This document shows positions 19,089 through 20,239 of a stretch of 39,707 nt of DNA, piece by piece. The DNA comes from a virus: UHGV virus genome UHGV-0130034. One strand, written 5' to 3'. The notes beneath the pieces were generated by a model. The model had not been told where the DNA came from, searched no databases, and worked only from the letters and a program-made list of their open reading frames with translations. Both the position numbers and the translations under genes were made by a program. Every line of letters starts with the position of its first letter. Position 1 is the first letter of the stretch.

Positions 19089-19331
19089 TCATGCTCCGGT
19101 AGTGAACAGGTCTAACGCTTCCTTCGATTTACGCACCGCTTCGATAGTTCGGGTCGTGATATCTGAATTAGCGCCACCTGACTGGAAGTGAATTTTGAAT
19201 AGCTCAAGCTTCAGCTCGTCAGTGCCAATGAACTGAAATGCTTCTTCTGCGGCTGCGTTCTGGTTCATGACCAGTTTGTAAATCTCTAACTGGAATTTCT
19301 GTTCTTCAGTCATGGGAATAATCTCTGCCAT
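19089..19331 (-). CDS. Hypothetical protein (80 aa)
   Basis: ORF with 1-nt gap to the HslV-like gene; no similarity recognised. Confidence 0.55.
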   Translation of the reverse strand: MAEIIPMTEEQKFQLEIYKLVMNQNAAAEEAFQFIGTDELKLELFKIHFQSGGANSDITTRTIEAVRKSKEALDLFTTGA

Positions 19332-19361
19332 TGTTGGCTCCGGTTGTTGTATTGCATCTAC

Positions 19362-19562
19362 TCACAGAAATGTCGATGACCAGATGAAGAATGCGAATCC
19401 TGACGCTGCGATAACAAGCGCAGATGCGATGTAGAAGAAGTGGTGAATGAAGCTGATGATTCTGTCAGACAGGGTTGGCTTTATCTCAGGATGATTGAGA
19501 ACGTCATCGCGTATGAGTGATATTCCGTAGAGCAGCGTTATTTCACGCTCTCGCTTTCTCAT
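19362..19562 (-). CDS. Small membrane protein (66 aa, C-terminal TM helix)
   Basis: C-terminal hydrophobic stretch IASALVIAASGFAFFIW; in the late-operon gap between Rz and terminase. Confidence 0.5.
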   Translation of the reverse strand: MRKREREITLLYGISLIRDDVLNHPEIKPTLSDRIISFIHHFFYIASALVIAASGFAFFIWSSTFL

Positions 19563-19624
19563 GAATCACCACGTTAGTTAATCCCCATTATCGAAGCCCC
19601 TCATTGAAGAGCTCCTGTAATGGC

Positions 19625-19909
19625 TTAGCAATCAGCGTCAGGACGAGCAACAGCACGACAGGCCCACATGCATGCTTCCTGCATTTTTGTTCTGGCGATA
19701 GCCAGACAACGAAGCGCTTCTGCGCGCTCTGTTTCAGCCTGACTGTCACGATCTACAACCTCCAGAGAGAGGTGCGTGCGTTCAATGTCGAGCTTTTCGC
19801 AAAAATCACGGCTGATTTCTTTCAGCTCATTCATTTGAGCGATATCGTCGGCGGTTAGGGTTCGATATCCCTTAACGGTACTGCCGTCCTGCGGTTTTGC
19901 TTCGTTCAT
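19625..19909 (-). CDS. Hypothetical protein (94 aa)
   Basis: Same-strand ORF in the late operon. Confidence 0.5.
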   Translation of the reverse strand: MNEAKPQDGSTVKGYRTLTADDIAQMNELKEISRDFCEKLDIERTHLSLEVVDRDSQAETERAEALRCLAIARTKMQEACMWACRAVARPDADC

Positions 19910-19951
19910 GGTTTCCTCGGTTAGTTAAGGCACTGCGCTTTGATGTATAAC

Positions 19952-20239
19952 TTAAAACGTAAGCAGCGATTCCAGTTCCGCAACTTGGTCGAGAATGCTG
20001 TCATTTAACTCACGATGACGAGAAACTGCGGATTCAAGCACAGGGAGAGCACCTTCAATTACCTCTGTTGATACCGCACATCCGTTACCGACAGGGTGAG
20101 CACCGCGCAATTGGTCAAGCAACGCCCCAAGCCGTGATTCAATAGCTTGTTGCTTAATGTTCTGGCTGTGTGCGGAGTTGATAATGCGATCGATTGATGA
20201 TTTATTCTCATTTTCTGCACATACTAAGTTACTGTTCAT
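19952..20239 (-). CDS. Hypothetical protein (95 aa)
   Basis: Same-strand ORF immediately downstream of Rz. Confidence 0.5.
   Translation of the reverse strand: MNSNLVCAENENKSSIDRIINSAHSQNIKQQAIESRLGALLDQLRGAHPVGNGCAVSTEVIEGALPVLESAVSRHRELNDSILDQVAELESLLTF

Follow-up and report, generated by a model that had tools for sequence, protein, structure and literature searches.

The UHGV virus genome UHGV-0130034 was analyzed as a stretch of 39,707 nucleotides (nt), here called the window, with attention to positions 19,089 to 20,239, where four small minus-strand open reading frames (ORFs) of 95, 94, 66, and 80 amino acids (aa) lie between the spanin gene Rz and an HslV-like gene. The window corresponds to a P22-like coliphage, with approximately 94-95% identity to APC_JM3.2 and IME10 across 56% of the first 25 kb. 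A first-pass annotation made from the sequence had described the four ORFs as filling the gap between Rz and the HslV-like gene, and the coordinates and lengths it gave were exact. It had also called them uncharacterised, which holds for ORF95 and ORF66 but not for ORF94 and ORF80; homology searches placed these two in named families, Acb2 and DUF2560, respectively, and found no named family for the other two. The features of the region are the following, in the order of transcription:

19952..20239, minus strand: ORF95, a 95-aa protein with few relatives, encoded immediately behind the spanin genes
19921..19947, minus strand: relic of 27 nt (TACATCAAAGCGCAGTGCCTTAACTAA) corresponding to the 3' terminus of another Rz allele, separating the stop codon of ORF95 from the ribosome-binding site (RBS) of ORF94
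19625..19909, minus strand: ORF94, a 94-aa Acb2-family cyclic-oligonucleotide sponge of the type directed against the cyclic oligonucleotide-based antiphage signaling system (CBASS), assigned by Pfam, phmmer, and AlphaFold2 (AF2)/Foldseek; its gene is called acb2 below
19586..19622, minus strand: 37-nt hairpin beginning 2 nt past the acb2 stop (CATTACA, a covarying stem of 7 bp enclosing a loop, and CGATAATG)
19362..19562, minus strand: ORF66, a conserved tail-anchored membrane protein of 66 aa
19089..19331, minus strand: ORF80, the 80-aa P22 Orf80/HK620 hkbM (DUF2560), a conserved anchor or backbone gene
18599..19087, minus strand: HslV-like Ntn-hydrolase family gene (phrog_1040, E=4.4e-37), in a variable slot between ORF80 and the small terminase gene terS

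All four ORFs are genuine genes and not chance ORFs, because ORF95 evolves with a ratio of nonsynonymous to synonymous substitution (dN/dS) of 0.15, the N-terminus of ORF66 is constrained, and the Pfam matches of ORF94 and ORF80 lie far above threshold. The possibility raised in the first-pass annotation that the ORFs lack conservation was thus set aside for each of them by dN/dS, homologues, or Pfam matches.

The genes of the slot

ORF94 belongs to the Acb2 family by profile match, fold, and conservation of ligand residues. It matched Pfam PF24729, the Acb2/Tad1 hairpin domain, with E=3.5e-18 and 66 bits (cut-off 27), covering all 58 profile positions, and this domain was present in 120/120 ORF94 homologues among the matches listed. 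Matches obtained with phmmer at about 2.5e-8 were T4 Vs.4 (7uq2, 2.3e-8), PaMx33 Acb2 (8h2j, 2.7e-8), and also 8ixz, and the identity to the solved Acb2/Vs.4 proteins was approximately 32-35%. The AF2 model, built from 23 homologues, reached a predicted local distance difference test score (pLDDT) of 89 and featured two long antiparallel helices (residues 20-48 and 57-88). Searching the PDB with this model using Foldseek returned 7uq2, 8h2x, and 8h2j, all Vs.4/Acb2 structures, as the top eight matches, with prob 1.00, template modeling scores of 0.66-0.73, and root-mean-square deviations of 2.4-2.8 Å; the matches that followed had E about 1.

When the two ligand pockets were examined separately, residues Y15, L18, K30, and P90 of ORF94 aligned with the dinucleotide-pocket residues Y11, L14, K26, and P90 of PaMx33 Acb2 in the phmmer alignment, and R67, A70, I71, and T74 were identical, with the same numbering, to the trinucleotide-pocket residues of PaMx33. 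Across 23 close homologues Y15, L18, K30, P90, R67, and T74 are invariant or nearly so (K30, L18, and P90 are invariant and Y15 is kept in at least 90%). Mutation of Y11, K26, or R67 in PaMx33 Acb2 abolishes, and T74A strongly weakens, the binding of cyclic GMP-AMP (cGAMP) or cyclic triadenylate (cA3), and the trinucleotide-pocket residues are less conserved across the family (PMC10312549). L14 and P90 are likewise ligand residues, and some Acb2 homologues bind 3'-cyclic ADP-ribose (3'cADPR) instead (PMC12393519).

From these sequence features, ligand binding, hexamer formation, and CBASS inhibition would be expected of ORF94. The protein would be produced from the late transcript and would assemble into a hexamer as in Acb2, and the hexamer would sequester the cyclic di- and trinucleotide signals of CBASS, leaving the effector inactive. 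The assignment would predict CBASS resistance of this phage, and it takes the place of the regulator role that had been proposed earlier. Public records name ORF94 homologues 'Acb2/Tad1 domain-containing protein' or 'DUF7681'. Homologues are present in approximately 1000 sequenced phages, most of them being T4-like vs.4 with 34-37% identity; no copy above 80% identity was found among the sequenced phage isolates in the phage collection, and a literature search on Acb2 in P22-like phages gave nothing relevant.

ORF95 is preceded by a good Shine-Dalgarno sequence (AGAGAGGAATAA-ATG), and its product is predicted to form two long helices (residues 4-44 and 64-94) joined by a Gly/Cys-rich loop (AF2 pLDDT 71.5). 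Comparison with a 70%-identical homologue, from which the dN/dS value given above was obtained at a dS of 1.48, indicates purifying selection. The protein is rare, with 2 clusters among 5.8 billion proteins and 12 matches among 1.84 billion representatives, of which about 8 are true small relatives; the long repeat proteins among these matches (567-2241 aa) look like low-complexity artefacts. No match was found in Pfam, PHROG, NCBIfam, or PADLOC, nor in the PDB by sequence or profile, and Foldseek searches of the model against the PDB and BFVD returned nothing similar. A diverged Acb2 paralogue was rejected (hhalign probability 0.1%). By its position, ORF95 is a candidate counter-defence or accessory factor. 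In one short contig (L009 427-1434; L numbers designate the loci and contigs that were read), ORF95 and a truncated acb2 (81 aa) are joined to a Cation_ATPase_C gene, and this junction could reflect the end of a prophage or a chimeric assembly.

ORF66 is a tail-anchored membrane protein under purifying selection, with a predicted N-in topology. Kyte-Doolittle analysis agreed with the single C-terminal transmembrane (TM) helix described earlier, showing one hydrophobic stretch at residues 42-60 (19-residue maximum 2.17), a charged N-terminal part, and only 4 residues beyond the helix. In 58 homologues of 49-73 aa, nearly all of 64-68 aa, the N-terminal 25-aa domain (MRKREREITLLYGxSLIRDDVLNHP) is almost invariant and the C-terminal TM helix is variable. 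Over the invariant N-terminal 22 codons, dS ranged from 0.4 to saturated and dN from 0 to 0.15; the constraint therefore acts on the protein, because synonymous change is abundant in the same codons, and a nucleotide-level element was ruled out by the saturated synonymous sites. In other phages ORF66 usually starts 3-7 nt past Rz and lies just upstream of DUF2560, without ORF95 or acb2, and in Citrobacter-type phages it directly follows Rz. No match was found among 50,697 sequenced phage records, nor in Pfam or PHROGs. Public gene calls of this lineage omit ORF66, which leaves an apparent 294-nt gap (L002 6615-6909, with equivalents in L003-L011).

ORF80 matched Pfam PF10834 with E=1.1e-43 and 147.7 bits (cut-off 25) and is 96-99% identical in DNA sequence to P22, HK620, and Sf101. 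P22 orf80 shows the synteny seen in the window, upstream of the small terminase region, and an identical or near-identical protein occurs in 86-87 loci with varied neighbors; a literature search on DUF2560 found nothing functional. The 1-nt gap reported between ORF80 (stop 19091-19089) and the HslV-like gene (ATG 19087-19085) was confirmed. The HslV-like product begins with Met-Thr-Thr, and its D14 and K30 align with Asp17 and Lys33 of the proteasome beta subunit, in a weak alignment (E=0.68). It had no Pfam match, reached 15.5 bits in NCBIfam against a cut-off of 224, and has homologues in 287 phage records of very different types; a literature search on such proteins in P22-like phages gave nothing relevant. 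Wherever a P22-like locus that was read contains the HslV-like gene, this gene comes immediately after ORF80, and it accompanies ORF80 without ORF95, ORF94, and ORF66 in Dewey, L074, and a dozen Escherichia coli prophages. The copy in L012 (6602-6874) is a truncated one of 90 aa that matches the N-terminal part at 78% identity, which suggests decay of the gene in some lineages. An alternative to it is an HExxH protein of 122-130 aa (LVHECAHV; phrog_1365), whose gene adjoins DUF2560 and was found in L004 (1724-2113), L153 (1918-2310), L236 (2990-3382), and 18 ORF66-anchored loci; in L234 (5363-5731) it directly follows an ORF95-like gene.

A covarying hairpin after accessory genes

The hairpin that follows acb2 reads, on the sense strand from 19622 to 19586, CATTACAGGAGCTCTTCAATGAGGGGCTTCGATAATG. 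Within the window it is a single copy, both by exact pattern (1 match vs 0 expected) and by covariance model (59.4 bits, E=2.7e-12), and RNAfold gave -20.9 kcal/mol with z=-3.77. It marks the 3' boundary of the acb2 module; the hairpin follows acb2 in 32/80 acb2 loci, and the similarity between loci stops right after GATAATG.

Across copies the element is 36-40 nt long, with the outer CATTACA and GATAATG invariant. In 20 distinct copies, 95.4% of the cells were paired, compared to 25-50% when the partner columns were slid, and 8 compensatory pairs were counted, with 50 compensatory cells against 16.5±3 after shuffling (0/500 shuffles reached the observed value); RNAalifold on the copies returned the same structure. 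An independent set, taken from ORF80-anchored loci, was 96.2% paired, with 9 compensatory pairs and 64 compensatory cells against 20.4±3.6. The hairpin is thus a well-supported structured element without an Rfam counterpart: no Rfam family matched it, and the only overlap was a weak one with Mu-gpT-DE (16.5 bits against a gathering score of 49).

The exact pattern was present in 108/236 loci, always on the sense strand, and in nearly every case it started 0-14 nt past a stop codon, following at least 19 unrelated gene families that include a Tad2-like protein (PF11195, E=6.4e-22), Rha-like proteins, divergent DUF2560 alleles, and Rz. In 87 ORF80-anchored loci (L016-L102), 130 copies were found, all of them sense-strand, upstream of ORF80, and in the variable region after the lysis genes. 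The covariance model located a copy in P22 (L103 1371-1422) downstream of rha, overlapped by the annotated 'orf25', and small annotated 'CDS' features overlap the hairpin in both P22 and Dewey. Copies also lie directly after ORF95 homologues (L012 6288-6337, L234 5296-5343, and L236 2280-2329). A wider pattern scan, in which 45/120 loci among the matches listed form the hairpin, is diluted by chance matches and is taken as qualitative only.

Several assignments for this element were rejected. It is not specific to acb2, since many unrelated genes precede it and loci lacking acb2 also have it. It is not an intrinsic terminator, as it is followed by GGGGATTAAC with no T-run, and a terminator scan made no call; the sequences downstream differ between loci and are not consistently T-rich. 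A sigma-70 promoter was discarded because the spacing from ATTACA to GATAAT in the window copy, 23 nt, is too long. A role as an mRNA 3' stabilizer, a processing site, or a DNA-level exchange linker is a candidate in each case, and a role at the RNA level is favored because of the many G-U pairs and the strict sense-strand orientation.

A second recurrent boundary element was observed on either side of accessory genes (ORF95-like, acb2), namely a classical intrinsic terminator (GAGCCTCGCAATAGCGGGGCTTTTT). It was found in L012 (5955-6000), upstream of acb2 in L184/L186, and downstream of acb2 in L155/L180/L227/L231 and in HK639 (L104 2329-2352).

Mosaic composition of the slot and competing readings

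Co-occurrence was examined in IMG/VR loci anchored on ORF80, ORF66, or ORF94, with all genes scored by tblastn. The trio of ORF95, ORF94, and ORF66 was present in 1/80 ORF80-anchored, 1/48 ORF66-anchored, and 1/80 Acb2-anchored contigs; the contig was the same one in all three sets and is essentially the phage of the window, so that comparison of the Rz-terS junction across related phages found these genes together in one contig or lineage only. The Rz-to-terS interval is a hypervariable accessory ('moron') slot, as the first-pass annotation had suggested: among the 87 loci sharing essentially identical ORF80, its content and the distance from Rz to ORF80 vary widely, with rha and orf25 in P22 and other genes in Dewey.

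All 21 public contigs read that carry an identical ORF95 belong to this lineage where their neighbors are visible. The identical trio is joined in them to four downstream contexts, which are the HslV-like gene with a P22-type terS, the HExxH protein, two other small genes with an Sf6-type terminase, and a divergent DUF2560 with an HslV-like gene. Where the upstream side is visible, homologues of ORF95 (70-40% identity) come first after the spanin. Six contigs carrying ORF95 homologues in other phages were read; one had an ORF66-like gene (L235, 31%, E=0.004), and acb2 was near the homologue in 0/5 contigs reaching downstream (L236 ends approximately 1.1 kb past the gene). Homologues of Acb2 are found in many lambdoid settings, and only 23/80 have any DUF2560 nearby. 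We therefore read the region as a mosaic accessory-gene slot holding four independent real genes, and not a co-inherited cassette, with a probability of about 0.8.

The junctions point to how this arrangement arose. The Rz relic between ORF95 and ORF94 extends to 30 nt matching the Rz end of L161 (GACTACATCAAAGAGCAGTGTCTTAATTAA), 26/30 by manual count, and also resembles the L106-type Rz end. In L185 and L161, acb2 directly follows Rz, and the RBS of L185 (CCGAGGAAAC) is the same as that of the window. Because of the relic and these two arrangements, acb2 can be derived from a phage in which it abutted Rz; in the window, ORF95 has an intact Rz on one side and the relic on the other. A 9-nt direct repeat (TTAACTAAC) at 19928-19920 and 19581-19573 flanks the acb2 module, and the relic and the repeat are the recombination signatures behind the present arrangement. 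The starting backbone was likely Rz-ORF66-ORF80, as in many Citrobacter/Enterobacter-type relatives; recombination would then have inserted ORF95 and a module of Rz 3'-end relic, acb2, and hairpin between Rz and ORF66, and the HslV-like gene would fill a second, separately variable slot after ORF80.

The first-pass annotation had proposed that the four ORFs and the HslV-like peptidase form one functional cassette, consisting of a toxin-like ORF66, a regulator, and a processing or controlling protease. The common strand, the tight spacing, and the 1-nt separation of ORF80 from the HslV-like gene are consistent with this proposal, as is L235, which repeats the order ORF95-like, small TM protein, DUF2560, HslV-like, with genes 1, 2, and 4 at 40%, 31%, and 82%. 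However, the five genes stand together only in the lineage of the window, every gene also occurs without the others, and in related phages the genes are for the most part scattered separately. ORF94 is a sponge-family protein rather than a regulator, the Rz relic marks ORF95 and acb2 as a secondary insertion, and no toxin-antitoxin (TA) or defence family was matched. The obligate co-occurrence that a membrane-toxin or TA cassette implies was not seen, and ORF66 had no PADLOC, Pfam, or NCBIfam match. Because the genes behave independently across contigs, the five-gene cassette is not supported, and we regard it as very improbable.

Smaller units were weighed in the same manner. ORF66 and ORF80 could form a module upstream of terS with an optional peptidase (HslV-like or HExxH phrog_1365), which might act late at the membrane, for example in lysis timing, superinfection exclusion, or host-factor proteolysis. 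ORF80 was detected downstream in 47/50 ORF66 loci, usually adjacent; in these loci the HslV-like gene, where present, starts 1-4 nt after ORF80, the HExxH gene adjoins ORF80 on either side, and the ORF66 start usually lies 3-7 nt after Rz. A peptidase-like gene of either kind was found in 23/44 ORF66 loci compared to 6/105 loci without ORF66, although these are raw pooled counts that include shared ancestry and are confounded by lineage. Against such a module, 79/80 E. coli-type contigs have ORF80 without ORF66, roughly every second ORF66 locus lacks a peptidase, L055, L071, L093, L074, and Dewey have a peptidase but no ORF66, and adjacency is expected anyway in a short slot; we consider it unlikely. 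It is similarly doubtful that ORF95 and acb2 constitute a two-gene counter-defence unit closed by a single hairpin, and the odds are also against the corresponding view of ORF95 as a new anti-defence protein that would serve as a second sponge or inhibitor or as a shield against sponge-sensing systems. The 100%-identical ORF95 is followed by acb2 in 10/10 contexts shown among the 21 contigs read, the window has a single hairpin behind both genes whereas L012, L234, and L236 each have one behind their ORF95 homologue, the same slot carries Acb2 or Tad2-like sponges in other phages, and ORF95 is small, predicted to be helical, and under purifying selection. But the linked copies are all 100% identical and represent one recent lineage, the five ORF95 homologues (70-40%) with downstream sequence have no acb2 nearby, ORF95 resembles no known anti-defence protein in sequence or fold, and the Rz relic that separates the genes suggests that they were joined by accident.

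Some observations weigh against the mosaic slot of independent genes as we describe it. The peptidase enrichment and the ORF66-ORF80 adjacency leave room for a smaller functional module, as a weaker association, and ORF95 and acb2, sharing one terminal hairpin, could act as a unit. Late expression of the slot genes, within the Q-dependent late operon, is deduced from the layout alone, and for some CBASS systems a sponge made late might come too late.

With the mosaic slot as the preferred reading, the region is an ordinary one, in which the most informative gene, ORF94, adds a member to a family that is known and already annotated, and it is explained without invoking a new system. A 159-aa Tad2-like (Thoeris anti-defence 2) protein, followed by the hairpin, lies between Rz and ORF80 in L042 (approximately 3230-3706) and in five other ORF80-anchored loci. 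Judged by sequence, the slot appears to host different families of immune-signal sponges (Acb2, Tad2-like) in different phages. A broader and tentative view, which we hold to be rather unlikely, is that the lysis-to-packaging interval of P22-like and other enterobacterial lambdoid phages is an array of exchangeable cassettes, with a preference for counter-defence genes, each ending in a hitherto undescribed sense-strand element (CAUUACA-stem-loop-stem-GAUAAUG). If this were true, the element would stabilize or process late mRNA or guide module exchange, the ORF95 family would be a new anti-defence protein, and ORF66 and DUF2560 could be further members. The slot is a reasonable place to seek new counter-defence genes, with ORF95, ORF66, and DUF2560 as candidates. 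The hairpin may account for the expression or exchange of these small genes and, together with the presence of two sponge families in one slot across phages, is possibly of interest to specialists.

Probable late-operon setting and comparison with known systems

Every gene of the region lies on the minus strand, and the transcription order is Q, holin, endolysin, Rz/Rz1, ORF95, ORF94, ORF66, ORF80, the HslV-like gene, terS, terL, and portal. The features that delimit the slot or lie upstream of it are the following:

22523-22005, minus strand: Q gene
22027-21998, minus strand: PR'-like promoter (TTGACA-18-CATAAT), found by promoter scan just downstream of the Q gene
20254..20715, minus strand: Rz i-spanin, upstream boundary of the accessory slot (Pfam Phage_lysis, E=4.7e-40; phrog_13)
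20495-20295, minus strand: Rz1, embedded in Rz
18105..18593, minus strand: small terminase subunit terS of the P22 gp3 type, downstream boundary (Pfam GP3_package, E=8.3e-31; phrog_606, E=3.5e-71)

Scanning the intergenic gaps of the region gave no promoter-like or intrinsic-terminator-like site, and the weak matches all fell inside coding sequence; in the simplest reading, the genes belong to the late transcript. A fragment resembling the 3' part of a tRNA or tmRNA (GGTTCGATTCCGGCCGCCACAACCCA) lies at 21738-21796 on the minus strand, with the PR'/tR' region on one side and the holin gene on the other. It reached 20.2 bits with the Rfam tmRNA model against a gathering score of 47, ARAGORN found no tRNA at this site, and the tRNA scan of the whole window likewise found none; the fragment may be a tRNA remnant or an att-like sequence.

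Compared with the studied Acb2 proteins (PaMx33 gp26 and T4 Vs.4), ORF94 is alike in length (94 aa), in the two-long-helix fold, in both pockets, and in being phage-encoded. Unlike them, it lies in the late operon of a P22-like temperate phage, right after the lysis genes, and thereby adds a genomic context for a family known mainly from studies of Pseudomonas phages and T4. ORF80 resembles P22 Orf80 and HK620 HkbM (DUF2560, PF10834) in sequence and position, with no notable difference. The HslV-like gene shares with the HslV/proteasome beta Ntn-hydrolases the N-terminal Thr after Met and carries the PHROG label 'peptidase HslV family', and the weak alignment mentioned above puts its Asp and Lys where the catalytic residues lie; in contrast to HslV systems, it has no HslU partner nearby and no Pfam match.

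Two kinds of element offer a structural parallel to the hairpin, in both cases a resemblance only. Integron attC sites carry the core sites RYYYAAC ... GTTRRRY, are 57-141 nt long, and have an associated IntI. Like attC, the hairpin combines a covarying inner stem and unpaired bases with outer sequence that is conserved, but an attC site was rejected, as the hairpin has no R''/R' core sites (no GTTRRRY core) and is 36-40 nt long, 37 nt in the window; we know of no role for an integron integrase in these phages. The hairpins processed by RNase III between T7 genes are similar in being a structured 3' element of unrelated genes.

The slot as a whole is closest in kind to the morons and the Hendrix-type mosaicism of lambdoid phages, where variable accessory genes likewise occupy a fixed position between conserved modules. 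As at lambdoid mosaic boundaries, the joints in the window bear a relic of the junction (the Rz 3' end) and short repeats (TTAACTAAC). Unlike morons, the genes of the window have neither a promoter of their own nor a U-tract terminator, and many genes of the slot end instead in the covarying, non-terminator hairpin.

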